Part shown: in pieces, positions 54 to 20,341 of the stretch
Numbering within the stretch: the stretch's first letter is position 1
Layout: each line of letters starts with the position of its first letter
Source of the DNA: a virus
UHGV virus genome: UHGV-0060448
DNA length: 38,897 bases
Reading direction: 5' to 3' (one strand)
Made by a program: the position numbers and the translations under genes
Notes under the pieces: generated by a model
Told to the model about the DNA's origin: nothing
The model's database searches: none
Seen by the model: the letters and a program-made list of their open reading frames with translations, nothing else

Positions 54-1208
54 TCAATCGTCCAAATGTTCAATGGCATAATCCGCTTCTTCGGAAGTAA
101 ACTGTTCTCCGTACTCGGAAGTAAGCTGATCATGGATAGCGGAAGGAGACATATTCATGCTGTCACGGTAATTTTTTGCAGTCTCCAGAGCGTTTTCATT
201 CCAATCGGCATCTAAGTTTTCTACTGCATAGTCTGCCTCTTCGGAGGTAAACTGTTCGCCGTATTCAGAAGTGAGCTGATCTCTGATTCCTTCTTTGGAC
301 ATGTGCATACTATCACTATAGTGTTTTGCAGTTTCCAGAGCGTTTTCATTCCAATCGGCATCTAAGTTTTCTATTGCATAGTTTGCGGCTTCTTCACTGA
401 ACTGTTCGCCGTATTCAGAAGTAAGCTGTTTGCGAATGCCTTCTTTAGACATATGCATGTGTTCACTGTAAGTTTCAGCACTTTTTAATGCAGATATGTA
501 TTCGGATGGAACCTGTGATTCCGTTTCTTTCACTTTGGTTTCGGCTGTAACTGGCTCAGTATCTTCTTCTATGTCATCATCAAGGTCTGAAAAATCTATG
601 TCATCGGATACATTTCCATAAGTAGAATATGTACTGTCTGGATCAGTTATTTTTACAGATTTTAAGATTCTGTTCAGGTACGTGTCATATTCATCTTCTA
701 CCTCAGAACTTAATGCGAATGTGAATGTGCCGCTTGTTCCATTGAAAACAATCGCTTTTGCAGGAAAACCTTGCACACTAAAAGTTAATTCGAGGGTGTC
801 CATTCCGTTTATACGGGTATTTTTAGAAGCGACTTTGCCATCATCTACAGAGCTGGCGATACCATCTTCAAACGCAGATACAATAACTTCATTAGAGAAA
901 TCTAAAACCCCTTCATTGTACATGACAAAGAACATTCCATCTCCGTTCCCGATGCCATTTTTGTAGAAATAAGCCATATCATCTGAATTGTCAGTGGCTT
1001 CTTCCCAAGAGGCAGGTACTTCGTAAGTGACTCCATAAGCATTTGAAACTGATGTATAATCTTCTTTAGAGTCAGAAGTAGAACTTGTTTCAGTTTCAGA
1101 GAAAGTTTCGGATACTTCGGTTGAAGGAGTACTTGGAGTGCCTGAACAAGCAGTGATACTACCAGCGACAGCGATTGCAAGTAAAACAGTAATAATTTTT
1201 TTCTTCAT
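54..1208 (-). CDS. ltp: Ltp-family surface lipoprotein (superinfection-exclusion type) with three C-terminal Ltp repeats and an extra central domain
   Basis: Signal peptide with lipobox ITAC (Cys21), Ser/Thr linker, repeats 'AL..A..Y...M.MS...I..QLTSEYGEQF..EEA.YA.ENL'; lies in the lysogeny module. Confidence 0.85.
   Translation of the reverse strand: MKKKIITVLLAIAVAGSITACSGTPSTPSTEVSETFSETETSSTSDSKEDYTSVSNAYGVTYEVPASWEEATDNSDDMAYFYKNGIGNGDGMFFVMYNEGVLDFSNEVIVSAFEDGIASSVDDGKVASKNTRINGMDTLELTFSVQGFPAKAIVFNGTSGTFTFALSSEVEDEYDTYLNRILKSVKITDPDSTYSTYGNVSDDIDFSDLDDDIEEDTEPVTAETKVKETESQVPSEYISALKSAETYSEHMHMSKEGIRKQLTSEYGEQFSEEAANYAIENLDADWNENALETAKHYSDSMHMSKEGIRDQLTSEYGEQFTSEEADYAVENLDADWNENALETAKNYRDSMNMSPSAIHDQLTSEYGEQFTSEEADYAIEHLDD
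60..490 (-). repeat. Three tandem 150-bp (50-aa) Ltp repeats
   Basis: ccagagcgttttcattccaatcggcatctaagttttct occurs at 185 and 335; the protein repeat is visible three times. Confidence 0.9.
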
Positions 1209-4006: not shown

Positions 4007-4675
4007 GTGAACCATAAACAAGAAATCGTAAATACACTCCAGAGAATGTCCGGAAAATACTCAACGTATGAGATCTTCTCCGACTGGATCAAGTGCTGTG
4101 CCCTGGCGATCAGCAACCAGAGCGACCTTTTCCGGGATAATGAGATATGGGAAAGCCGAGAGCAGGAGTATCTTGCGACCATTCGGAAATACCTGCCGGA
4201 AGAAGCACAGGAGTTTACCCGGATGCTTGCGGAACTGGCTTTTGCCCTGGAGGACGAAATAACAGACGTCCTGGGCGAAGTGTACATGGAAGCCGATATG
4301 GGAAGTAAGTCCACCGGGCAGTTTTTCACACCGTACCATTTGTCGAAGATGACTGCCGGGGTTACGATCCCGGCAGACGTTTCGCCGGCGAAACCATTGA
4401 TACTGAATGAACCAAGTACGGGAGGTGGCGGCATGATCATTGCCGCCGCTGAAATATTGAGAAAAAGAGGGCTGAACCACCAGAGGTGCATGGAAGTGGT
4501 TGCACAGGATCTGGACTGGAAGGGGGTATACATGACCTACCTGCAGCTGTCCCTTTTGGGGATCAAGGCGATTGTGGTACAGGGCAATACCCTGTCAGAG
4601 CCATTTACAGACCTGAGGAGCTACCCGAAAGAACGGGTGCTGCTCACGCCTGCACAAAAAGGAATGTTGATTTGA
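4007..4675 (+). CDS. HsdM/N6-adenine methylase-like protein, truncated before the catalytic NPPY/F motif
   Basis: 'DVLGEVY...GQFFTP' and SAM-binding 'EPSTGGGGM...AQDLD'; ends shortly after 'QGNTL'. Confidence 0.8.
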   Translation: MNHKQEIVNTLQRMSGKYSTYEIFSDWIKCCALAISNQSDLFRDNEIWESREQEYLATIRKYLPEEAQEFTRMLAELAFALEDEITDVLGEVYMEADMGSKSTGQFFTPYHLSKMTAGVTIPADVSPAKPLILNEPSTGGGGMIIAAAEILRKRGLNHQRCMEVVAQDLDWKGVYMTYLQLSLLGIKAIVVQGNTLSEPFTDLRSYPKERVLLTPAQKGMLI

Positions 4676-4693: not shown

Positions 4694-5746
4694 ATGGAAG
4701 GACAGCAGCCAGATGCACGTCAGAGCCTGTATGAAAGTATACTTCTGGTCCTGATGAACGAAGAGGTAGATATCAGCCGCGTTAAGAATGGGATCTATGT
4801 GGCACTGAATGGGTATGAAGTCCAGGAACGAACAACAGAGATTGCGTTGATTTCACAGGAGAGAAATGAGTATCTGCTTAAAAAGTTTATGATTGCAAAG
4901 ACGGTCAAAGGATGCACACCAAGAACTCTGAGGTATTATCGTGACACTTTGAAATTTGTGTTCGATTACATAGGAAAAACGGTAGATGACATTACCTCGG
5001 ATGACATCCGGATGTACAGCATTATCCGGATGAAAAAAGATGGAGTGACTGAAGTAACAGCAGATAATGAACTCCGTGTACTGAGGAGTTTTTACGGGTA
5101 TCTTCAGCGGGAAGAGATCCTGACAAGCAACCCGATGCTGAAGATTGAATGTATCCGGGCACAGCGGGTGAAAAAGACGGCATTTACCGAAATGGAGATT
5201 GAAAAACTCAGAATCCAGGCGATGGAAACAGGAGCGAGAGAAAGCATGATTGTTGAAACACTGTTAAGTACTGGAATGAGGGTCGCAGAACTGGCACAGG
5301 TCAGACTGTGCGAGATTGAAGGAAACCGTGTGCTGACCCATGGAAAAGGGAAAAAGGACCGTTACACCTATCTGAACGCAAAGGCAGAGCTTGCGATGGA
5401 CAGGTACCTGAAAACCAGAAACGATGATAACCCATACCTGATCCCAGGACGGATCATGCAGAGAGGTGATAAAGAACTGGAAAGACCGGCAGCGTTTAAC
5501 TGTCATGGACATATCGAACGTCACCAAATAGAAGAGACACTGAAAGGAATTGCACAGGCAGCAGGCGTTGCCGAAGGGAACCCACATAAATACAGACGTA
5601 CCTGTGCAACGATGGCACTCCGCAGAGGGATGCCGGTTGAACAGGTGTCGAAGATGCTGGGGCATGAACAGCTCACGACTACACAAATCTATCTGGATAT
5701 AGACGAGGAAAACATGAAAGCGGCACACCGGAAATATGTGGTTTAG
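4694..5746 (+). CDS. Tyrosine recombinase (XerC/D-like), copy A
   Basis: STGMRVAE, GKGKK, PHKYRR, LGH, TTQIY: full catalytic set; N-terminal core-binding (SAM-like) domain. Confidence 0.92.
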   Translation: MEGQQPDARQSLYESILLVLMNEEVDISRVKNGIYVALNGYEVQERTTEIALISQERNEYLLKKFMIAKTVKGCTPRTLRYYRDTLKFVFDYIGKTVDDITSDDIRMYSIIRMKKDGVTEVTADNELRVLRSFYGYLQREEILTSNPMLKIECIRAQRVKKTAFTEMEIEKLRIQAMETGARESMIVETLLSTGMRVAELAQVRLCEIEGNRVLTHGKGKKDRYTYLNAKAELAMDRYLKTRNDDNPYLIPGRIMQRGDKELERPAAFNCHGHIERHQIEETLKGIAQAAGVAEGNPHKYRRTCATMALRRGMPVEQVSKMLGHEQLTTTQIYLDIDEENMKAAHRKYVV

Positions 5747-5784: not shown

Positions 5785-6837
5785 ATGGAAGGACAACAGC
5801 CAGACGCACGCCAGAGTCTGTATGAAAACCTGCTCATGGTGCTGATGAACAAAGAAATGGATATCGGATGTGTCAAGGATGGCATCTATGCGGTAATAAG
5901 CAAATACGAGATCCAGGAACGCACAACAGAGATTGCGTTGATTTCACAGGAGAGAAATGAACAGCTGATGAAACGCTTCCTGCTTGCAAAAACCGTCAAG
6001 GGGTGTACGCCGCAGACATTGGAATATTACAGGAGTGCATTGAAGTTTGTATTTGATTACATAGGAAAGACGGTGGATGATATCATTTCAGATGATATCC
6101 GGATCTACAGTGTCATGAGGATGAGAAGGGATGGGATAACGGCAGTGACTGCTGACAATGAGCTTCGGATTCTGCGGAGCTTTTATGGATACCTTCAACA
6201 GGAAGAAATCCTCCTCAAAAACCCGATGACGAAAATTGAGCGGATCAAAGCACCAAAAGTGAAAAAAGAAGCATTTACAGACATGGAAATTGAAAAGATA
6301 AGACTCCAGGCAATAGAGACAGGACCGAGGGAAACTATGATTGTGGAAACGCTGCTGAGCACTGGAGCGAGGGTTGCGGAACTGGCACAGGTAAAGCTGT
6401 GCAACATCGAAGGGAAACGTATGCTTGTGCACGGAAAAGGGCAGAAAGACCGTTATGTATACCTGAATGCAAAGGCAGAGCTTGCAATGGGCAGGTATTT
6501 AAAGACCAGAAATGATGATAACCCCTACCTGATACCGGGATGTGTGATGGAAAAAGGGGAACAAAAGATTGGAAGACCGGCAGAACGTAACCGATATGGA
6601 CACATCGGAAAAGGCGGCATTGAAACGATTGTACGAGATATTGCAGAGGGAGCAGGTGTTACAAAAGGGAACCCGCACAAGTACCGCCGCACCTGTGCGA
6701 CAATGGCACTCCGCAGAGGAATGCCGATTGAACAGGTATCAAAGATGCTGGGGCATGAGAGCATTGAAACCACACAGATCTATCTTGACCTTAGTGAGGA
6801 AGACCTGAAAACGGCACACAGAAGATATGTGGTATAG
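5785..6837 (+). CDS. Tyrosine recombinase (XerC/D-like), copy B, tandem paralogue of A
   Basis: STGARVAE, GKGQK, PHKYRR, LGH, TTQIY; same length (350 aa) and colinear with A. Confidence 0.92.
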   Translation: MEGQQPDARQSLYENLLMVLMNKEMDIGCVKDGIYAVISKYEIQERTTEIALISQERNEQLMKRFLLAKTVKGCTPQTLEYYRSALKFVFDYIGKTVDDIISDDIRIYSVMRMRRDGITAVTADNELRILRSFYGYLQQEEILLKNPMTKIERIKAPKVKKEAFTDMEIEKIRLQAIETGPRETMIVETLLSTGARVAELAQVKLCNIEGKRMLVHGKGQKDRYVYLNAKAELAMGRYLKTRNDDNPYLIPGCVMEKGEQKIGRPAERNRYGHIGKGGIETIVRDIAEGAGVTKGNPHKYRRTCATMALRRGMPIEQVSKMLGHESIETTQIYLDLSEEDLKTAHRRYVV

Positions 6838-6840
6838 AAG

Positions 6841-6871
6841 CAAAAGGGCATTGCCATGACAGCAATGCCCT
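6841..6871 (-). terminator. Intrinsic terminator hairpin AGGGCATTGC-N7-GCAATGCCCT
   Basis: Perfect 10-bp stem at 6845-6871; T-run only on the minus strand. Confidence 0.7.
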
Positions 6872-6897
6872 CCGCGAATATGCAATATTCCTCAACC
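6841..6897 (-). ncRNA. Candidate ~57-nt counter-transcribed small RNA upstream of rep
   Basis: Minus-strand promoter at 6904-6932, small GAATAT/ATATTC hairpin, then 10-bp stem AGGGCATTGC/GCAATGCCCT with a T-run. Confidence 0.55.
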
Positions 6898-6903
6898 GGT
6901 TAT

Positions 6904-6932
6904 ATTGTATCATTTCGCCGGCGAAAATTCAA
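6904..6932 (-). promoter_or_regulatory. Antisense promoter TTGAAT-N17-TACAAT (extended -10) with palindrome TTTCGCCGGCGAAA in the spacer
   Basis: -35 at 6932-6927, -10 at 6909-6904, palindrome at 6913-6926. Confidence 0.65.
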
Positions 6933-6975
6933 GCGGCAAAAGCAGCGGCAGGGCCGCTTTTCAACTTGATTTAGA
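6931..6975 (+). other. Candidate double-strand origin: GC hairpin AGCGGC/GCCGCT followed by CAACTTGAT
   Basis: CAACTTGAT (6962-6970) equals the first 9 nt of the phiX174 gpA origin (CAACTTG^AT); lies 31 nt upstream of the HUH gene. Confidence 0.45.
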
Positions 6976-7001
6976 CAATTAAAGATAGGAAAACCAGAGG
7001 G

Positions 7002-7721
7002 ATGTATACAAGAAAGACTTGGAAGAGTAAAAACGCGATCGAGATAGCAGAATACCATGACTGCAGGTACGGGGCACCGGGAAGAAGCAGGATGGAAAAA
7101 AGGAAAGCCACACCGGAAGAGATGGAGAAGCAGAACCAGAGAAACCGGGAGCGGAAAGCCAGACATAAGTTATGGGCAAACTTCAAGGAAGACGACTACT
7201 TTTCGACCTGGACGTTTAAGAAGGAAAGCAGACCGCAGGACATGGGAGAAGCAAAGCAGATCTTCAGCAAAGTGATCGGGATCATCCGGAGGGAATATAA
7301 GAAGCGTGGGCATAAGCTTTGCTGGATCCGCAACATAGAGGTAGGCACAAAAAATGCATGGCATATCCATATCGTGCTGAACCGGATACCGGACACGGAC
7401 CTGATCCTGAAAAAAGCATGGACATATGGCGGGATCCATAATGAACTGCTGTATACAAGCGGGGAGTTCACAAAGTTGGCGGTATATCTGTGCAAGACAC
7501 CGAAGACGGACAGGCGTCTGAAGGAGAACAGCTATTCAACGTCCAGGGGATTAGCCGGGATCGAGCCGAAAAGGCGGGTCATGAAGGGCAAGACCTGGAA
7601 AAAGGAGATCAGACCGCCGAAAGGCTGGTACATCGACAAGGAGAGCGTCCGCCAGGGAGAGAACAAACTGACCGGACAGCCATACCGGACTTATATCCTG
7701 TTCCGGATACAGAGGGAATAA
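7002..7721 (+). CDS. HUH-superfamily rolling-circle replication initiator-like endonuclease
   Basis: Motif I FSTWTF, motif II WHIHIVL (HUH) and motif III YLCK in Rep order. Confidence 0.8.
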   Translation: MYTRKTWKSKNAIEIAEYHDCRYGAPGRSRMEKRKATPEEMEKQNQRNRERKARHKLWANFKEDDYFSTWTFKKESRPQDMGEAKQIFSKVIGIIRREYKKRGHKLCWIRNIEVGTKNAWHIHIVLNRIPDTDLILKKAWTYGGIHNELLYTSGEFTKLAVYLCKTPKTDRRLKENSYSTSRGLAGIEPKRRVMKGKTWKKEIRPPKGWYIDKESVRQGENKLTGQPYRTYILFRIQRE

Positions 7722-7774: not shown

Positions 7775-7803
7775 TGTGGACAGTGTGCATAAAATGTGCA
7801 CAA
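7775..7803 (-). promoter_or_regulatory. Three co-oriented DnaA-box-like 9-mers
   Basis: TGTGGACAG, TGTGCATAA (exact TTATNCACA on minus) and TGTGCACAA in intergenic DNA after rep. Confidence 0.5.
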
Positions 7804-7859: not shown

Positions 7860-8240
7860 GTGGAAGAACATAGAGCAAAAGTAAAAGCATACATAAAAGT
7901 GACCAGCTGGCAGTATGCCTGGATGCTGGAATATAACGGGCACCGCCTGTACGGTGAAGGAGAAGGGAGCACGCACAGCGTAAACCGGAAGCTGACAGCG
8001 ATCGAAGCCCTGGCAGATATGCTGGGACACATGAACAGGGGAGCAGTGATCGACCTGGAGATCAATGAGATGAACGTTGCAAACTACATCAACAGTGGAT
8101 GGCTGGGCAAGTGGAAACAGAATGACTGGAAAACCGTGGGTGGTGTCGGGGTTAAATACGCGGAAACATGGAAAACGGTACGCTTTGAGCCACATGCACT
8201 CCGTGCGAAATACGTCCGCGGGCTGGAGATACCGGCATGA
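7860..8240 (+). CDS. RNase HI-like protein, apparently lacking catalytic aspartates
   Basis: 'WLGKWKQNDWKT...VKYAETWK' matches the RNase HI basic-protrusion pattern; the YTDG and TDS equivalents read YIKV and INE. Confidence 0.6.
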   Translation: MEEHRAKVKAYIKVTSWQYAWMLEYNGHRLYGEGEGSTHSVNRKLTAIEALADMLGHMNRGAVIDLEINEMNVANYINSGWLGKWKQNDWKTVGGVGVKYAETWKTVRFEPHALRAKYVRGLEIPA

Positions 8241-8648: not shown

Positions 8649-9083
8649 ATGAACAAAGTAATCTTGATGGGAAGATTAACCAGAGACCCGGATATCCGAC
8701 ATTCTGCTGGCGAGAACAGTACAGCGGTTGCACGTTATACACTGGCAGTGGATCGCAGATACAAGCGTGATGGCGAGGCAGGTGCTGATTTTATCGGCTG
8801 TGTGGCGTTTGGCCGCAGTGCAGAGTTTGCAGAAAAGTATTTCCGCCAGGGCTTGAAGGTAGTGATAACCGGCCGCATCCAGACCGGGAGCTATACCAAC
8901 CGGGACGGCAACAAGGTTTATACGACAGATGTAGCCGTAGAGGAACAGGAATTTGCGGAAAGCAAAGCGGCAGCAGGACAGGGAGAAAACAGCAGATCCC
9001 AGCAGAAACCAGAGCCACAAGTGGATGCAAATGGATTTATGAACATCCCGGACGGTATTGACGAAGAACTGCCGTTCGCATAG
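8649..9083 (+). CDS. ssb: Single-stranded DNA-binding protein
   Basis: MNKVILMGRLTRDP N-terminus and acidic tail DEELPFA. Confidence 0.97.
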   Translation: MNKVILMGRLTRDPDIRHSAGENSTAVARYTLAVDRRYKRDGEAGADFIGCVAFGRSAEFAEKYFRQGLKVVITGRIQTGSYTNRDGNKVYTTDVAVEEQEFAESKAAAGQGENSRSQQKPEPQVDANGFMNIPDGIDEELPFA

Positions 9084-9623: not shown

Positions 9624-11756
9624 ATGAAAAAGAAGGCAATCGAAAAGATCCCATATCTGGGGTTGAAGAAGATCAGCAGAAAGCAGGATGTGAAATATAT
9701 CGGGGTAACGGCGGTCAAGACCGTGGGGCACGAAAAGCATCTGTTCCTGGAAATGTATCGAAACGAAAAAGAATCAATGGATATTCCGGTCGTGCGGATC
9801 GCACTGACAAAGAAAGACTTTGGCACTTACTACCCTGACAAAGATACATGGACAAGAGAAAAAATCGGAAAGGACTATTATTACGGTTCAACACTGGTCT
9901 GGAATAAGGCAGGGGGAAGGACAGAGCGAAACAGCAGGGCAAAAGCCAATATCCTTGCCACCGAAGAAGACATGCAGCGTATTGAAAAATTCTGTGGAAA
10001 AAATGAATGGTATAAAAGCGAATGGTGGGAGCACATATACCGGTTTCAGAGTTCCATCGCAATAGAAGAACGAAGAAAAGCAGAAAACAGAAAGTATGAA
10101 AAACGGCAGCAGGCGTTGAAAGACCGCCAGGAGCACACACCGGAACTTCCGGAAGCGGAGATCCTGGAGATGGCAGACAGGTTCTATTTCCACCAGAAGC
10201 ATTATCTGTATTACAAGAAACACGGCTGCAAGGTACGGATCGCATGCACCAAATGCGGCGGTGTGACAGAAGCCAGATGGAAAGGCGGAATGAGTTACGA
10301 GAGCCAGTTCCAGAAATGGGTGGACCCGCCGAAAGAAGGTGTTCTTGCACCATGCCCGATGTGTGGGGAGACTGGTGAGTACAAATGCCAGGGCAAAGTA
10401 AAAGGTATGCATAGCCAAAAGATTTATGCATTCATTGGACAGAAATATAAAGAAACAGGCATGGTGTTCCGTTACATAGAGCTGATAAAAGAATGGAAAC
10501 TCGGGCTGGTAGAAGACGGGGAAGAAACGGTCATGTATAATGCCAGTGAAGAAATTTCCGGTATCGAAATAGCAAGGGCCTATTTTGCACCGGGAGAGAA
10601 AACACAGATTGATTACCATAAGTGTGACCGCATTGACGAAAAAAATTACTGGGATGACTGCAACCTGTACGGCAACGCCAACATCACGATCCATGCAGGG
10701 CGGATCCTGCCGCATACCTACCGTGAAATGCAGGGAACTATATTCCAGTACAGTGCCCTGCAGGAATATGAAAAAATGGTCCCGGAAGTCAACCCGGTCA
10801 GCTACCTGGAACGCTGCCTGGATATCCCACAGTTGGAAATGATTGTAAAAATGGGATTAAGCGAGATCGCGGCGTCCATGGTCCGGTGTGAGTGCGGCAT
10901 CATAGCAGACACAAATGCAAAACGGCTGGATAAATTCCTGGGGATCCGGAAAGAGCGGACACAGCAACTGATCGAAAGCAAAGGCAATCTTGAACTCCTG
11001 AAAGTTATGAAGATGGAAAAGAACCTGAAACAGAACTGGACCGAAAAACAGATAGAACATCTGGCGGTCACAAGACTGGGACAGGGACAGATCGAACCGG
11101 CATTGCAGCACATGAGTCTGCAAAAGCTTCTGAACCGGATAGAACGGTATGCCGAATGCAGATATGAAAGTGCCTGCCTGCGTGCACAGGAACGGATCAG
11201 ACACATGGCAGTAACCTACACGGATTATCTGAATATGCGGCTGTCACTTGGCTATGACCTGACTAATACCGTATATCAGCAACCGAGAAATCTGGAAGCA
11301 GCACACAACAAGATGAACATGGAACTGAACAAGGAAGAAATAGACAAACGCCTGCAGGAAGTAAAAAAGAGATTTGCAGGCATCAGGAGCAGATACCGGA
11401 AGCTCAGAAACCGGTATTTCTATGAGGATGATGAATATATCATCCGGCCGGCAAGGTCAGCGGAAGAGATCGTTATGGAAGGCAGGATCCTGCACCATTG
11501 CGTTGGCGGGGACAGCTATCTCGGAAAACACAATGACGGACAGACCTACATTCTGATGCTGCGGTTTGCAAAAGAACCGGAGATACCGTACATAACCGTA
11601 GAGATCGAGAGGGACACGCACCGGCTCATCCAGTGGTACGGGGCACATGACCGCAAACCAGATAAGGGGCACATGCAGAAGTGGCTGGATGATTATGTGG
11701 GGCATCTGAAACAGAAAGATGCAGAAGCAAAGCAGAGGGCACAGAGCGTGGCGTAA
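9624..11756 (+). CDS. PcfJ-domain protein with CxxC zinc-ribbon motifs
   Basis: 'DYLNM...LEAAH...EGRILHHCVGG..Y...ITVEI...QWYG' PcfJ signature; CTKC and CPMC. Confidence 0.85.
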   Translation: MKKKAIEKIPYLGLKKISRKQDVKYIGVTAVKTVGHEKHLFLEMYRNEKESMDIPVVRIALTKKDFGTYYPDKDTWTREKIGKDYYYGSTLVWNKAGGRTERNSRAKANILATEEDMQRIEKFCGKNEWYKSEWWEHIYRFQSSIAIEERRKAENRKYEKRQQALKDRQEHTPELPEAEILEMADRFYFHQKHYLYYKKHGCKVRIACTKCGGVTEARWKGGMSYESQFQKWVDPPKEGVLAPCPMCGETGEYKCQGKVKGMHSQKIYAFIGQKYKETGMVFRYIELIKEWKLGLVEDGEETVMYNASEEISGIEIARAYFAPGEKTQIDYHKCDRIDEKNYWDDCNLYGNANITIHAGRILPHTYREMQGTIFQYSALQEYEKMVPEVNPVSYLERCLDIPQLEMIVKMGLSEIAASMVRCECGIIADTNAKRLDKFLGIRKERTQQLIESKGNLELLKVMKMEKNLKQNWTEKQIEHLAVTRLGQGQIEPALQHMSLQKLLNRIERYAECRYESACLRAQERIRHMAVTYTDYLNMRLSLGYDLTNTVYQQPRNLEAAHNKMNMELNKEEIDKRLQEVKKRFAGIRSRYRKLRNRYFYEDDEYIIRPARSAEEIVMEGRILHHCVGGDSYLGKHNDGQTYILMLRFAKEPEIPYITVEIERDTHRLIQWYGAHDRKPDKGHMQKWLDDYVGHLKQKDAEAKQRAQSVA

Positions 11757-14723: not shown

Positions 14724-14795
14724 CGGAATGTAGTTTAAGGGAAAAACATACGGCGTTACGCACCGTAGACTCTGGTTCGAATCCAGGCTTTCCGA
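14724..14795 (+). tRNA. Degenerate tRNA-like gene; anticodon arm centred on TAC (Val); no encoded CCA
   Basis: Acceptor CGGAATG/CTTTCCG, D arm GTTT/AAAC, anticodon stem TACGG/CCGTA with 9-nt loop, T arm TCTGG-TTCGAAT-CCAGG. Confidence 0.6.
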
Positions 14796-14967: not shown

Positions 14968-15156
14968 ATGCCAATGAGTTCGAAGGAGATGATAAAACTT
15001 CTCCAGAAAAAAGGTTTCGTGATTGTCAGCCAAAACGGTTCACACGTTAAAATGGCCAACAGAGAAACCGGAAGAACGGTAATCGTTCCTTATCACTCCA
15101 AAGACCTGAAAAAGGGAATGGAGCAGGCAATACTGAAACAGGCAGGACTGAAATAG
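14968..15156 (+). CDS. hicA: HicA-family toxin (mRNA interferase)
   Basis: 'EMIKLLQKKGF....GSHVK.......VPYH.KDL.KG....ILKQAGL'. Confidence 0.95.
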   Translation: MPMSSKEMIKLLQKKGFVIVSQNGSHVKMANRETGRTVIVPYHSKDLKKGMEQAILKQAGLK

Positions 15157-15184
15157 TCCTGCCACCTGAAAAGGAGGATTGTGC

Positions 15185-15586
15185 ATGAACAGGTTATTTT
15201 ATCCAGCTGTTTTTCACACAGCAGAAGAAGGTGGGTTCTGGGTAACATTTCCGGATATACCGGAGTGCATGACACAGGGCGATAATATGCAGGAAGCTTA
15301 CGAAATGGCAGTTGATGCATTAGGATTGTCATTGACAAGTAGAGAAGCAGAAAGAGAAGAGATTCCGAAAGCATCTTCGCTTGATGAAGTAGATGCAGAG
15401 GACGGTACACTGGTTATTGTAGAGTTTGACATGGCGGAGTATCGCAGACGAAACAGCTCAAGGGCAGTCAAGAAGACACTCAGCATTCCGGAATGGCTGA
15501 ATGAGGCAGCAGTCCGTGAGGGTGTGAATTTTTCACAAATCTTGCAGGAAGCATTAATGTCAAAACTTGGAATTCAAAGACAATAG
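15185..15586 (+). CDS. hicB: HicB-family antitoxin
   Basis: 'YPAVF...GGFWVTFPDIPECMTQGD...' plus C-terminal RHH-like 'VKKTLSIPEWLNEAA...NFSQILQEAL'. Confidence 0.95.
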   Translation: MNRLFYPAVFHTAEEGGFWVTFPDIPECMTQGDNMQEAYEMAVDALGLSLTSREAEREEIPKASSLDEVDAEDGTLVIVEFDMAEYRRRNSSRAVKKTLSIPEWLNEAAVREGVNFSQILQEALMSKLGIQRQ

Positions 15587-15601
15587 AAAAGATACAAGAC
15601 G

Positions 15602-15632
15602 AAGGGGCATCCGTTTAGCGGGTGTCCTTTTT
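15602..15632 (+). terminator. Intrinsic terminator after hicB
   Basis: AAGGGGCATCCG/CGGGTGTCCTT stem with G-U pairs, followed by a T-run. Confidence 0.75.
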
Positions 15633-15656
15633 GCATACTCAAACAGGAGGAACGGA

Positions 15657-16169
15657 ATGACCGGAAGAAAAAGTAAATATGAAACACACGTGAAGCCGTA
15701 TCTTCCGGAAATTGAGAAATGGTGCAACACCATGACGGAAGCCCAGATATGCAAGCGGCTCGGTGTTGGCAAGAGTGCATGGAATGAGTACAAGAAAAGA
15801 TTCCCGGAACTAATGGAAAGTATTAAAAGGGGAAGGACAGATCTTGTATCTGATCTGAAAAGTGCACTGATTCGAAAAGCGAAAGGCTATGAATACACAG
15901 AAACCAAGATCACAAAGCAGAAAGTAGAGCTGCCGGATCTGATGAAACAGGCGTTGATTGAAGCAGGTTTCAAAAAAGAAGAACTGGAAAGGGTTGATCT
16001 TGTAAAGACAGAAATCAGCCATAAGAAAGCTTCTCCAGATGTTGCGGCGATTAATTTGCTGCTAAAGAATTACGACAAAGAGAACTGGGCGAACGATCCA
16101 CAGATGCTTCAGATCAGGCAGGAAGAGTTGCGGCTCAGAGAGAAACAGGTAGAGAGCAATACATGGTAA
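15657..16169 (+). CDS. HTH protein resembling a terminase small subunit or packaging-associated DNA-binding protein
   Basis: SD AGGAGG; 'GRKSKY...TEAQICKRLGVGKSAWNEYK...ALIRKAKGY...PDVAAI..LLKN'. Confidence 0.65.
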   Translation: MTGRKSKYETHVKPYLPEIEKWCNTMTEAQICKRLGVGKSAWNEYKKRFPELMESIKRGRTDLVSDLKSALIRKAKGYEYTETKITKQKVELPDLMKQALIEAGFKKEELERVDLVKTEISHKKASPDVAAINLLLKNYDKENWANDPQMLQIRQEELRLREKQVESNTW

Positions 16170-16525: not shown

Positions 16526-17227
16526 ATGAAACAGACATTAGATACGTTCTATAAGTCGAAAGAGTGGGTGAGCTTGGTTGGTGCTATCAGATTGCAGAGA
16601 GTAAACGCTCAAGGTGATCTGATATGTGAGTATTGTGGGGAACCTATTGTGCGGGCATACGACTGCATCGGACATCATGTCATTGAACTTAACGACAACA
16701 ATGTGAATGATGCAATGATTGCACTGAATCCAGATAACATACAGCTTGTGCACCATAAATGCCACAACAGAATACATAAGAAGTTCTGCTATGGAGAAGA
16801 TATGCGGCAGATCTTTCTAGTATATGGTTCACCATTGTCCGGCAAGACGAGCTGGGTGAGGGAAGTACAGAACGAAGGCGATCTGATCGTTGATATCGAC
16901 AGTATCTGGCAGAGCGTGAGCGGATGCAACCGGTATACAAAACCCGGAACGCTGAACAGTATTGTATTTGGCATCCGGGATTATCTTATTGAGAGCATCA
17001 AGTATCGGCGGGGAAAATGGCGGAACGCTTACATTGTCGGTGGCTATCCTCTGATCAGCGAGCGAGAACGATTATGCAAGACACTGGGGGCAAGGGAGAT
17101 ACTGATCGACACCAGCAAAGAGCAATGTCTTGCACGACTGAAGAGCTGTTCGGATGGCAGGAACATCGCAGAGTGGACACAATACATCGAAGAATGGTGG
17201 CACAGGTACTCCCCCCACGTCCCCTGA
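16526..17227 (+). CDS. Packaging-associated HNH endonuclease fused to a P-loop (AAA/kinase-like) domain
   Basis: 'FYKSKEW...CEYC...HHVIEL...N....HHKCHNRIH' followed by Walker A GSPLSGKT. Confidence 0.85.
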   Translation: MKQTLDTFYKSKEWVSLVGAIRLQRVNAQGDLICEYCGEPIVRAYDCIGHHVIELNDNNVNDAMIALNPDNIQLVHHKCHNRIHKKFCYGEDMRQIFLVYGSPLSGKTSWVREVQNEGDLIVDIDSIWQSVSGCNRYTKPGTLNSIVFGIRDYLIESIKYRRGKWRNAYIVGGYPLISERERLCKTLGAREILIDTSKEQCLARLKSCSDGRNIAEWTQYIEEWWHRYSPHVP

Positions 17228-17871: not shown

Positions 17872-18708
17872 ATGTTAAACAATCTATTTGAAACCTGGAA
17901 CGCCGGATTTCTTGCGGATGGTGGACGAAATCTGGCAGAAAACACTAACCAAGGAGTGACTGGCTGGTACTGGTCAATGTCGGCGAGGGGGGCATTCGAA
18001 GACTGAAGTAATTGAGGATGGGTTCGTACTGCAAAACTTGTTAGGGATAAAAGCGAATTTAACGGTAATTGGTCTTATCTGCACTTTGATAAACCGGGAA
18101 TTAAAAAATACTTACCCAGTACTATATATACGATTTCAATCGATATAAAACCGAGTGTTATTACACAAATTGCCGCTAACATCAAAAATGGAGACGGCAC
18201 AAATCCTATAGCAAATGATGCAAAAACAAAAGAACTGATTGCGAATTCTTGGAATAAAGTGATTTGGAAAATAAGAACATATTCATCACTACCTGAATTA
18301 AAACAACAAGTATTATATTTGATTAAAATGAATTCTGGTGTAGGAATTTCTTACCAATTTCGAAATCTAAAGATTGAAAAAGGAACAGAAGCAACTGCCT
18401 GGACGCCAGCTCCTGAAGACACTATCGGCAATGGTGACTACCCGAACTCAATCTTTACGAACACCATTCCCGTTAAGAAAAACACACAGTATGCCTACGG
18501 TCTGGAAAATGCTGGTACGTTACCAGCCCACACCGTGCGATATCTGAAATCTGATGGAACATATATCAGGTCGGAAGACATCGCGGAAAATCAGACTAGT
18601 GGTATCAGAACCGTAACATTTGATGGGGACTATGATATTGAGATCATGTTCCCGGACGGCTTAACAGACGATGAAAAAAATAATTTCTATTATAGGAGGA
18701 TTGGAATA
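17872..18708 (+). pseudogene. Interrupted fibre-associated gene carrying a 'GGRNL...KIEKG..AT.WTPAPED' (putative carbohydrate-binding) domain
   Basis: Same frame before and after TGA stops at 18004 and 18013; sensible reading (GHSKTEVIEDG) runs in the +1 frame between G6 (17987-17992) and GGG (18020-18022). Confidence 0.65.
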
Positions 18709-19536
18709 ATGTCAAAATTTTTGGACACAGCCGGATTAACTTATCTCTGGAGCAAAATCAAAACAGCACTCGGCAAAAAGGTAGATAAAGTAGACGGAAA
18801 AGGGCTGTCTACAAACGACTATACAACAGCAGAGAAAAACAAACTGACAGGAATCGCAGACGGTGCAAACAAATATGTGCATCCGAGTTACACAGCGAAA
18901 ACAAATGGACTGTACAAAGTGACCGTGGATGCAACCGGACACGTATCTGCCACGACAGCAGTTACTAAGACAGATATCACGAATCTGGGAGTGCCTGGAA
19001 GTAACACAACCTATTCCGACTTTAAGGGGGCAACAGCGGATGCGGCAGGTGCACACGGACTGGTACCGGCACCGGCAAAGGGAACGACTGGATCATTCTT
19101 GAAGAGCGATGGAAGCTGGCAGGCACTCTCACTGGATAAGAACCTTGGATTAGATGAAGGATTTTTGGAATTGAACTGGGGTGACAGCTATTCCAGAGTA
19201 ATCATTCCGGCAGCTACAGCATCTCTTGCAGGCTTCATGCCGGCTGCAATGTACACAAAACTGAATGATCTGCCGACAAATGCAACGTTGGCCAGTACCT
19301 ACGCGAAAAAAACCGACATCACGGGCGTGTACAAGTACAAGGGTTCCCTGGCGGATGCAACGAAACTGCCGACTACAGGGCAGGTTACCGGTGATGTGTA
19401 CAATCTGGAAGCAGCATCTGATTATGGACCGGCAGGAACGAATGTAGCATGGGACGGTAAAGCATGGGATGCACTGGGCGGTCTGTTCGTAGTTGATGCG
19501 ATCACCAACGCTGAAATTGACGCTATCTGCGTGTGA
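18709..19536 (+). CDS. Fibre (head or tail) protein, 275 aa
   Basis: SD AGGAGG before ATG 18709; 'KVDKVDGKGLSTNDYT..EK.KL.GI..GANKY.HP', 'GLVPAPA.G', 'YKYKGS' fibre motifs. Confidence 0.75.
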   Translation: MSKFLDTAGLTYLWSKIKTALGKKVDKVDGKGLSTNDYTTAEKNKLTGIADGANKYVHPSYTAKTNGLYKVTVDATGHVSATTAVTKTDITNLGVPGSNTTYSDFKGATADAAGAHGLVPAPAKGTTGSFLKSDGSWQALSLDKNLGLDEGFLELNWGDSYSRVIIPAATASLAGFMPAAMYTKLNDLPTNATLASTYAKKTDITGVYKYKGSLADATKLPTTGQVTGDVYNLEAASDYGPAGTNVAWDGKAWDALGGLFVVDAITNAEIDAICV

Positions 19537-19570: not shown

Positions 19571-20341
19571 ATGGCGTATCTGGACAAGTCAGGGCTTACT
19601 GAGTTATGGAAGAAAGTGAAAAGTTATGTGGATGCCAATGGCGGCGGAACACCGACAACAATTACAGGAAATGCAGGTTCAGCAACCAAGCTCCAGACAG
19701 CACGGGCAGTAGATGGCGTCAATTTCAACGGTACGGCTGACATTGCCCATTATGCCGTGTGTTATACGACAGGCTCGACCGCCGCAAAGACGGTCAGCCT
19801 GACGAACTTCAAGCTGGTAGCTGGTGCGAGAGTGTTCGTGCGGTTTAGCTACGCCAACACTGCAAGTAACCCAACACTGAATGTCAATTCTACCGGGGCG
19901 AAAGCAATTCAATACAGAAACAGTGCCATACCTGCAAACCTGATCAAGCAGTATGCAGTATTGGAGTTGGTGTACAGCGGATCATATTGGTATGTAGTTG
20001 GCGATATTGATGCAGCAGTGGTTCTGTCAACGGCAGCAGTAACACCGTCAGCAATAACAACGTGGGCGTATTCGGCGGCAATCAGCACACTGGCAAATTA
20101 CGATGAGATTCGTGTGTGGCTGGAAGTTTCTGACGGGCAGAAAGGCTGGGTAACACTTACGCGAAGCGATCCGGCAGAAACCGTGATCACAATGTACCTT
20201 AGTTCTACATACAATGTGCGTGTGCAGCTGAAATGGGACACCGCAAACAATAAGGTAGGCGTATATGTACGAAATATCGGTTCAGGTTGGACAGTGGGAC
20301 AAGTGAGCATGAAACGCATCGAAGGGGTGAAGCTGAAATGA
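19571..20341 (+). CDS. Fibre/receptor-binding-like protein, 256 aa
   Basis: 'GNAGSATKLQTAR...GVNFNGTADI' shaft motif and 'NT..NPTLNVN.TGAK.I' domain. Confidence 0.75.
   Translation: MAYLDKSGLTELWKKVKSYVDANGGGTPTTITGNAGSATKLQTARAVDGVNFNGTADIAHYAVCYTTGSTAAKTVSLTNFKLVAGARVFVRFSYANTASNPTLNVNSTGAKAIQYRNSAIPANLIKQYAVLELVYSGSYWYVVGDIDAAVVLSTAAVTPSAITTWAYSAAISTLANYDEIRVWLEVSDGQKGWVTLTRSDPAETVITMYLSSTYNVRVQLKWDTANNKVGVYVRNIGSGWTVGQVSMKRIEGVKLK

Follow-up and report, generated by a model that had tools for sequence, protein, structure and literature searches.

The virus genome UHGV-0060448, a stretch of 38,897 nt that is called the window here when its full length is meant, carries a compact module in and upstream of the open reading frame (ORF) at 7002-7721. 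It consists of a single-tyrosine HUH protein (Rep), a likely origin and a predicted 60-nt antisense RNA, and we consider it probable that this module starts the replication of a temperate gut siphovirus by a rolling-circle mechanism. Comparison with relatives shows that Rep combines a predicted HUH fold with intact motifs, that it sits in the slot of the replication initiator, and that the upstream element, the antisense promoter, its terminator and the complementarity of a leader segment to the ribosome-binding site (RBS) are conserved. A plasmid-like HUH initiator replicon in a Firmicutes siphovirus had been proposed in the initial annotation of the window, and the protein family, the genomic slot and the conserved cis elements support that proposal.

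The HUH motifs that had been read in the ORF are present in the order I-II-III, i.e., FSTWTF (residues 67-72), WHIHIV with H121 and H123, and VYLCK with Y162 and K165, with one tyrosine in motif III. Residues H121, H123, Y162, K165 and Y231 are all invariant in 80 of 80 non-redundant relatives. The order of the motifs is that of Rep-type HUH proteins and differs from that of Mob-type proteins (PMC5714925; here and below, statements from the literature refer to passages of the cited papers). The protein scores 42.4 bits with PF23343, against a cut-off of 27.8 (E 9e-11), and is matched over residues 1-238 by phrog_3584, 'replication initiation protein' (E 5.5e-48), and also by phrog_3419. PF23343 is a broad model, with phiX174 A and P2 A also scoring above its cut-off. 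With the AlphaFold model (pLDDT 92.5) as query, the BFVD matches were headed by Siphoviridae ORF2/G2P proteins, followed by microvirus Reps, with Rep matches reaching E 2e-19. Among solved structures the top three were HUH nucleases (Z 7.9-8.3), including SIRV1 ORF119 (Z 8.3, root-mean-square deviation 2.8 over 107) and B19 NS1 (Z 7.9); the PDB matches are weak, with Foldseek E values of 0.016 or worse and a Z of 8.3 that is near the background range. A sequence search of the PDB gave no match at E 10. The profile and structure searches, proposed earlier as a check, agree in PF23343/phrog_3584 membership and in HUH nucleases leading the structural matches. By motifs, motif order and predicted fold, the product of ORF 7002-7721 belongs to the HUH Rep superfamily, and nicking activity is predicted.

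Rep falls outside both the gpA and the Rep_1 families. In the Pfam scan it lacked PF05840, which matches both P2 A and phiX174 A, and gave no match to the Rep_1 domain. The YxxxY signature of two-tyrosine initiators (YVAKY in phiX174, YIAKY in P2) is absent: the residue four before Y162 (position 158) is K in 24, D in 22, E in 18 or another residue in the 80 relatives, and Tyr in none. With E in 18/80 and K in the window, a conserved glutamate of the pC194 style is not found at this position either.

Comparison of gene order shows that Rep sits in the initiator slot, where it swaps with theta-type initiators. Using the PcfJ-like gene as bait yielded 159 loci, of which 94 had at least 5 kb upstream and formed 45 clusters. 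Rep was present in 42 of the 45, in 41 cases upstream of PcfJ, a proportion that is inflated by the baits being drawn from rep-positive loci. The three clusters without Rep are as follows: L327 has a Lin1244_N/phrog_2562 initiator with RusA in place of Rep, L229 has a DnaD-like initiator (phrog_186), and in L320 the slot and the head genes are both absent within the locus. The DNA motif described below was absent in all three (best scores 0.3-4.0). As had been noted earlier for the window, no DnaB/DnaC loader, primase, DnaD-type initiator or polymerase, and no helicase, was found among its scanned proteins (33 + 10 against Pfam, 23 against PHROGs). The recurrent neighbour families of Rep likewise contained no helicase, loader or primase (80 representatives and 78 further rep-positive ORFs). 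Whole records were searched as well, without dereplication. PF07261, PF01695 and PF03796 matched 0/49 records (47 rep-positive and two theta controls), and since these Pfam DnaD, DnaC and DnaB models missed both theta-type controls, the negatives are of limited sensitivity. A search for D5 primase with PF08706 matched 0/50 records, 48 of them rep-positive. The phrog_2562 profile matched its control alone and 0/48 rep-positive records, and phrog_186 matched its control, record G021 and, weakly, 84-aa ORFs in three other records.

The region directly upstream of rep contains a conserved element that is likely the double-strand origin of Rep. After dropping four of 175 loci with less than 200 nt upstream, the set was collapsed at 85% to 84 clusters, of which three were below the motif score, leaving 81. 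The 30-nt element, with consensus ACTTGATAAGNATATTAAAGWTAGGA, occurs upstream of rep in these 81 of the 84 clusters and, in a leave-one-out analysis, outscores every other site of the whole locus, both strands included, in 82/84. In the window it scores 18.3 at 6961 and the next best site -0.5. The reverse also holds: rep was found downstream in 80/80 viral loci baited by the DNA pattern (the motif-baited sets, for this and for the distant subfamily below, comprised 80 loci with flanks out of 112 and out of 113). The GC hairpin that had been placed just upstream of the ORF was found directly 5' of the putative nick (hairpin B) and has a counterpart in 69/81 relatives, against 22.3 expected from shuffles; a T-run follows it in only 14. 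The last AGGA of the element may double as a Shine-Dalgarno sequence.

A phiX174-like nick sequence, CAACTTGAT, had been pointed out at this place, and its conservation upstream of homologues had been suggested as a check. It occurs at 6962-6970, and neither strand of the window has a further copy. The exact 9-mer is found in 2/81 relatives and CTTGATA in 28/81; the window itself reads CTTGATT. What is conserved is the unit CTYG-N8-ATTA, with up to 1 nt of slip. At the nick tetranucleotide, allowing one base of slip, we found CTTG in 49, CTCG in 12, GTTC in 4 and other sequences in 16 of 81 loci, against a background of 20/2430 (0.8%), and CT(T/C)G is thus present in 61/81. IS91 uses GTTC. In short, the CTTG core and the surrounding 30-nt element stood up and the 9-mer as such did not, and CAACTTGAT is beyond chance because it lies inside an element that is conserved upstream of homologues. 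Loci without CTYG fall mostly in one clade (16/18 rows, support 99) of a quick maximum-likelihood tree of 80 rows, with one short row left out.

The position of the nick can be weighed between two sites. ATTA is found in 81/81 main-family loci, against 49 with CTTG. This invariance, which is partly by construction because the motif search was seeded on ATTA, first suggested a nick at ATT^A. The nick consensus of CRESS-DNA viruses is the nonanucleotide with TATT^A, and a nick at TATT^A (6980/6981) would leave the replicon the same and make CTTG a binding site or part of an extended hairpin with the upstream CAAG. The occurrence of CRESS and parvovirus Reps among the structural neighbours, and a DNA centroid fold in which CAAG pairs with CTTG, are consistent with this. 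However, in the distant subfamily ATTA changes to AGTA, AATA or ACTA whereas CTTG is kept in 8/8, and ATTA lies outside any conserved hairpin loop. Furthermore, the main variants CTTG and CTCG equal the annotated nicks of phiX174, CAACTTG^ATATTAATAAC (CTTG^A), and P2, GCCTCG^GAG (CTCG^G), whose A proteins are both scored by PF23343. We therefore regard the TATT^A site as unlikely. The pC194 origin carries TCTTGATAATAAG, with core CTTGATAA (PMC10378824; PMC7072734). The site between 6968 and 6969, after CTTG, which had been named as the nick in the initial annotation, is favoured because phiX174, P2 and pC194 use the two commonest variants and the distant subfamily keeps CTTG; on motif conservation and the match to annotated nicks it is the most likely position, and we hold it with reasonable though not high confidence.

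Three other explanations of the conserved sequence were rejected. As a sigma-70 -10 box, it lacks conservation of the base needed at position 6 on either strand. A dif-like recombinase site is suggested by a TAA-N5-TTA pseudo-palindrome, but the motif tracks rep and not the recombinases. Conservation of CTTG merely through pairing with the upstream CAAG does not agree with the loci that lost CTTG, which often keep GTCAAG.

The distant Rep subfamily (E about 1e-20) is represented by L275:3097-4038, L326:13488-14348 and G001:C1:33744-34367 (L453); one locus (L580) was left out of its analysis. It has its own origin-like sequence, CCTTGTAATRGRTAKTAAC, in about 210 viral stretches, with rep downstream in 74/80. 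In 8/8 distinct protein-baited upstream sequences CTTG is present with unchanged spacing to A-x-T-A, the second base of which is variable. The record that comes nearest to the window (35% shared words) has a distant Rep, which indicates that the two Rep modules swap between related phages.

The upstream element might instead be a mere Rep operator or expression signal, with the true nick elsewhere, e.g., inside rep as in phiX174, P2 and pT181. The origins of phiX174 and P2 do lie inside gene A, the element abuts the RBS, and RepU of pUB110 silences its own promoter from the origin (PMC5703833). Against this, a known nick tetranucleotide stands at fixed spacing behind a hairpin, the locus has no second copy of the element, the element is not a strong palindrome, and an origin upstream of rep is the usual plasmid layout (PMC5703833). 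An operator without origin function thus seems very improbable.

Further upstream, the rep leader has the conserved architecture of a countertranscript, which the initial annotation had also proposed. An antisense promoter is present in 54/81 leaders (plus strand, 6; shuffles, 7.5) and is at a fixed offset (-41 to -44) in 41 of the 54. It is followed by a terminator in 45/54 (11.6 in shuffles, 4 on the opposite strand), predicting RNAs of 54-75 nt in 44 loci and of 37 nt in one. On the sense strand, the segment of the antisense -10 box and spacer is the 3' arm of hairpin A. The cognate arms of this hairpin pair more strongly than non-cognate arms (z -17.6; -9.7 in a second set), and the 3' arm pairs with its own RBS/start region at -13.0 kcal/mol versus -10.0 kcal/mol for non-cognate combinations (z -8.2). 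Controls pairing the arm with coding sequence or the 5' arm with the RBS were not significant. In the second set, with 20 new non-redundant loci, the antisense promoter was found in 18, and the anti-RBS pairing replicated in those 18 (z -5.6). Rfam has no family for the leader; the window gave only the tRNA, with a best E of 2.1 in 6780-7060.

The conserved antisense promoter and terminator and the covarying anti-RBS pairing are new here and predict translational control of the kind proposed for pSK41, in which RNAI, a short countertranscript, induces sequestration of the RBS (PMC5703833). We consider it quite probable that the antisense RNA represses translation of rep in this way. A close relative of the window illustrates possible specificity changes. 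Between L001:2870-3050 and window positions 6830-7010, Rep is 99-100% identical and the origin near-identical, and the loop of hairpin A and the terminator stem differ, as incompatibility variants would show, making L001 a candidate antisense specificity variant.

Rather than blocking translation, the antisense RNA could act by transcription attenuation at hairpin B, as in pT181 or pIP501, or its promoter could prime a single-strand origin. Hairpin B lies ahead of the start codon and is followed in the window by TTTT. Moreover, the single-strand origins of rolling-circle replication (RCR) plasmids are primed by RNA polymerase (PMC5703833), and the polarity of the promoter fits priming on the displaced strand. 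On the other hand, hairpin B was rejected as an attenuating terminator since a T-run follows it in just 14/81, and it is predicted to be paired with or without the antisense target blocked. The antisense RNA ends in its own terminator, and the locus-specific covariation between arm and RBS points to translation. Attenuation or priming therefore appears an improbable, though not negligible, role in comparison with translational repression.

Another possibility is that Rep is a relaxase-like or selfish nickase, serving mobilisation by a co-resident conjugative element or homing, in a phage that uses host-driven theta replication via DnaA boxes. In its favour, the PcfJ-like neighbours take their name from a conjugative plasmid, and three DnaA-box-like 9-mers lie at 7775-7803, 3' of rep. 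HUH Reps can serve as relaxases with ICEBs1 (PMC5703833). The motif order I-II-III is nevertheless Rep-type and not Mob-type (PMC5714925), Rep is mutually exclusive with theta initiators in the slot, a search with Rep gave no match among 72,556 plasmids, and the antisense architecture is of the copy-control type. The DnaA boxes, which the initial annotation had counted as part of the system, occur in 11/82 loci, where the background is 0.084 per 250 nt, and are ruled out as a conserved module element. We consider a mobilisation or homing function highly unlikely.

For rolling-circle initiation under antisense control, the following sequence of events is proposed. The rep mRNA would fold hairpin A, leaving the RBS free. 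Binding of the antisense RNA to the 5' arm and loop would free the 3' arm, which would pair with the RBS and start codon and block translation, so that little Rep would be made in the lysogen and when infection begins. Rep would bind the ATTAAAGWTAG block, nick the top strand after CTTG at 6968/6969, and stay linked to the DNA via Y162. Host helicase, Pol III and primase would extend the 3'-OH rightwards, and SSB (single-stranded DNA-binding protein) likely coats the displaced strand; the role of host enzymes is drawn by analogy with RCR plasmids (PMC5703833, PMC5714925). Termination is probably loose because the residue at Y162-4 is neither a second Tyr (phiX174, P2) nor a conserved Glu (pC194); in pC194, Glu210 is the proposed termination residue (PMC5703833). 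Loose termination would give the concatemers needed by cos and headful terminases, an outcome for which the chances appear evenly balanced. Y231 or a second Rep subunit could terminate instead.

Several observations weigh against this scheme, besides the weak PDB matches, the origin of the PcfJ baits, the limited sensitivity of the Pfam models and the seeding on ATTA mentioned above. Y231 is as invariant as Y162 and could be a second catalytic tyrosine. At the predicted nick, 16/81 loci have none of CTTG, CTCG and GTTC. In the distant subfamily the antisense promoter occurs in only 13/32, and some members have no antisense leader. Equilibrium folding of the whole leader with the target blocked lowers RBS accessibility only slightly, from about 0.49 to 0.43, and the cognate translation initiation region is the best partner of the arm in only 5/54 rows and in the top five in 23. 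In the 70-kb record G021 an HUH rep occurs together with a DnaD-like gene at a distance of about 44 kb, and in phage phiCs5676-1 a gene outside the early region is annotated as 'DNA helicase' (phrog_62). Finally, the lysate of L. curvatus TMW 1.1381, whose phage P1 carries a related Rep, had no visible assembled virions (PMC10688831).

To place the module among known systems, we compared it with the closest replicons. P2/Peduoviridae gpA resembles it in being the HUH nickase initiator of a temperate tailed phage with double-stranded DNA (dsDNA), a role that is predicted for Rep of the window. The P2 nick CTCG^G corresponds to the second commonest variant in the family (12/81), and P2 A was the best, though marginal, match of the Rep-family profile among five reference records (E 0.002). 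P2 A differs by its 761 aa, YxxxY, PF05840 and an origin inside gene A, whereas the window has a Rep of 239 aa with one motif-III Tyr, a likely upstream origin, a predicted antisense leader, siphovirus morphogenesis genes and Gram-positive hosts. P2 packages monomer circles. The Rep_1 plasmids pC194 and pUB110 share with the window the single motif-III Tyr, an origin upstream of rep (a likely one in the window) and a proposed antisense RNA control, and the pC194 origin core equals the family consensus CTTGATAA (28/81 relatives). They differ in that pC194 has Glu210 at Tyr-4 (K24/D22/E18/other in the family of the window, K in the window), the window has no Rep_1 match or plasmid homologue, and the antisense RNA proposed for pC194 overlaps the initiation region itself whereas the predicted one of the window lies about 100 nt upstream.

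The origin of phiX174 protein A, CAACTTG^AT, is identical to the window over 9 nt, and microvirus Reps are structural neighbours; yet the 9-mer occurs in just 2/81 relatives, Rep lacks a second Tyr, its likely origin lies outside the gene, and the phage is a tailed dsDNA phage. RNAI of pSK41 is likewise short, runs antisense about 100 nt upstream of the start and has a proposed role in RBS sequestration (PMC5703833); it measures about 83 nt and belongs to a theta-replicating RepA_N plasmid, in contrast to a predicted RNA of 54-75 nt in the family and an HUH Rep in a phage. ORF278 of the inovirus Pf3 (PF23343 ORF2/G2P) has the same Pfam domain, a similar size (278 aa) and neither Tyr nor Glu four residues before the Tyr of its putative motif III, but Pf3 is a filamentous phage with single-stranded DNA, and the similarity to the Rep-family profile is not significant (E 0.45). 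Taken together, we think the module probably works like a rolling-circle replicon of the P2/pC194 type with RNA control of the pSK41 type.

The Rep family is large. One search gave 257 matches; counted as clusters at 50% identity, the family has 2664 members with E values up to 0.001 and 314 with 1e-30 or better. About 740 viral stretches fit Rep-family peptide patterns, and 340 of 600 checked were confirmed. Most of the 80 genome loci listed with the family are labelled Lachnospiraceae. Among 50,697 phages, nine records match Rep, including phiCs5676-1 (53.6%), Arawn, Idris, Closwp03, Dulem virus 34 and TMW 1.1381 P1. These have a phrog_3584-family Rep (27-54% identity) in the same slot, annotated there as initiator; the upstream element is recognisable in phiCs5676-1 and Arawn, and weakly in TMW P1. 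The module is thus carried by phiCs5676-1 of Clostridium scindens, a temperate plaque-forming siphovirus (PMC8005731) whose Rep, CS5676_0052, is 54% identical to that of the window. As a side observation, Arawn (L176:15859-17004) and L146:966-2078 have reverse transcriptase genes after the tail genes, in Rep-positive phages (6/84 loci), which are probably diversity-generating retroelements.

The initial annotation had seen here its best candidate for an undescribed system. At the level of annotation this does not apply to the protein, since PHROGs, Pfam, UniProt titles and GenBank already give it the name of a replication initiator. Endonucleases resembling P2 gpA may serve dsDNA viruses that have no helicase (PMC4889955), and a 2019 survey gave HUH Reps of dsDNA viruses in Sphaerolipoviridae, Rudiviridae, Corticoviridae and Myoviridae, with siphoviruses unlisted in the passage at hand (PMC6668415). 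Passages of the isolation papers (PMC8005731, PMC10688831, PMC7372960) do not mention rolling-circle replication, an origin or antisense RNA. A literature search for a rolling-circle origin or antisense control in these siphoviruses turned up no paper on either, but its scope mostly excluded subscription literature, and it is not proof of absence.

Table 1. Features of the predicted replication module and its linked genes in the window.
Feature	Position	Strand	Remarks
Predicted countertranscript RNA, about 60 nt	6838..6897	-	Start placed about 6 nt past the -10 box; ends in terminator
Intrinsic-terminator-like hairpin	6841..6871	-	10-bp perfect stem 6845-6854/6862-6871, 4-U run; not listed by a stricter 5-T scan
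Leader hairpin A	6873..6921	+	5' arm and loop, antisense target; 3' arm (about 6904-6922), predicted anti-RBS
Antisense promoter, sigma-70/sigmaA type	6904..6932	-	TTGAAT (6932-6927), 17 nt, TG-TACAAT (6909-6904)
GC-rich hairpin B	6938..6961	+	Directly 5' of putative nick
Putative double-strand origin	6961..6990	+	CTTG 6965-6968, predicted nick 6968/6969, ATTA 6978-6981, then AAGATAGGA
HUH Rep	7002..7721	+	239 aa; H121 (7362-7364), H123 (7368-7370), Y162 (7485-7487), K165; second invariant Tyr Y231
Degenerate RNase HI-like protein	7860..8240	+	phrog_531; usual gene right after rep
Single-stranded DNA-binding protein	8649..9083	+	PF00436; within 10 kb in just 14/84 loci
PcfJ-like gene	9624..11756	+	PF14284; linked neighbour, also found with theta-type initiators; used as independent bait

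The gene order of the window runs from a superinfection-exclusion lipoprotein, helix-turn-helix repressors, a methyltransferase and two tyrosine recombinases to rep, and continues with RNase H-like, SSB, PcfJ-like and DUF3850 genes, followed by HNH, PF03354 terminase, portal, protease, capsid, tape measure, Dit, holin and amidase genes. The earlier label of siphovirus prophage is borne out in its first part by the large terminase subunit, portal, HK97-type capsid, tape measure and Dit, identified with Pfam and PHROGs. An integrase for lysogeny and an att site are not inside the window, and the prophage part is based on the repressor-type genes and on a close relative (L016/G002) with a 99% identical Rep, classed as provirus and with an integrase-like ORF at its left end. 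The suggested tie to cos packaging did not extend to the family: a PF03354 terminase occurs in just 18/48 records with the Rep module, and SPP1-type portals are among the neighbours in others.

The RNase HI-like gene is the first gene 3' of rep in 50/84 loci and occurs in 21/42 rep-positive versus 0/3 rep-negative PcfJ clusters. Its catalytic acids are not conserved: in the L070 homologue, which was aligned to solved structures, the positions of E48 and D70 are changed, and the family alignment has no invariant acidic residue. The protein is probably a hybrid-binding accessory without activity. The tandem tyrosine recombinase paralogues (4694-5746 and 5785-6837, 258/350 aa identical) follow an N6-methyltransferase-like gene (4007-4675) and are possibly dimer resolvases; the early region of phiCs5676-1 has a second 'integrase' too. 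The initial annotation had included the pair in the system, but L229 too has an ORF of this family, in front of its theta-type initiator, and the pair, a tandem duplication, was ruled out as part of the module.

Other features of the window are an Ltp-type superinfection-exclusion lipoprotein with three PF07553 repeats at 54-1208 (minus strand), a tRNA-Val(TAC) at 14724-14795 between the early region and the packaging genes, and a HicA/HicB-like pair at 14968-15586, recognised by clustering with phrog_353 and phrog_497 members. At 16526-17227 an HNH endonuclease is fused to a P-loop (Walker A) domain (phrog_4581), adjoining a separate small-terminase-like gene (15567-16169). The ORFs at 18259-19536 and 19571-20341 match tail-fibre or virion-protein-like PHROGs and have an unusual position before the large terminase gene.

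A wider and decidedly tentative view is that a sizeable group of gut temperate siphoviruses imported a complete plasmid-type rolling-circle replicon. Its non-terminating nickase would give concatemers from the first round, the antisense RNA would add a second, repressor-independent lysogen immunity or incompatibility, and Rep acting before excision would roll through attR into host DNA, causing one-sided lateral transduction.

HUH-initiated replication in tailed phages has been described for P2-like myoviruses; here a common group of phages of gut Lachnospiraceae would have an HUH protein as its main initiator. With an origin predicted to the nucleotide and a predicted RNA switch, the mechanism is directly testable in the cultured pair phiCs5676-1 and Clostridium scindens. 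Being only about 0.9 kb long, the module could be turned into compatible shuttle replicons for Lachnospiraceae. Its proposed mode of action is relevant to the question of how concatemers arise in temperate phages that lack a theta stage or recombination genes, and to that of how a nickase is kept silent in a prophage.

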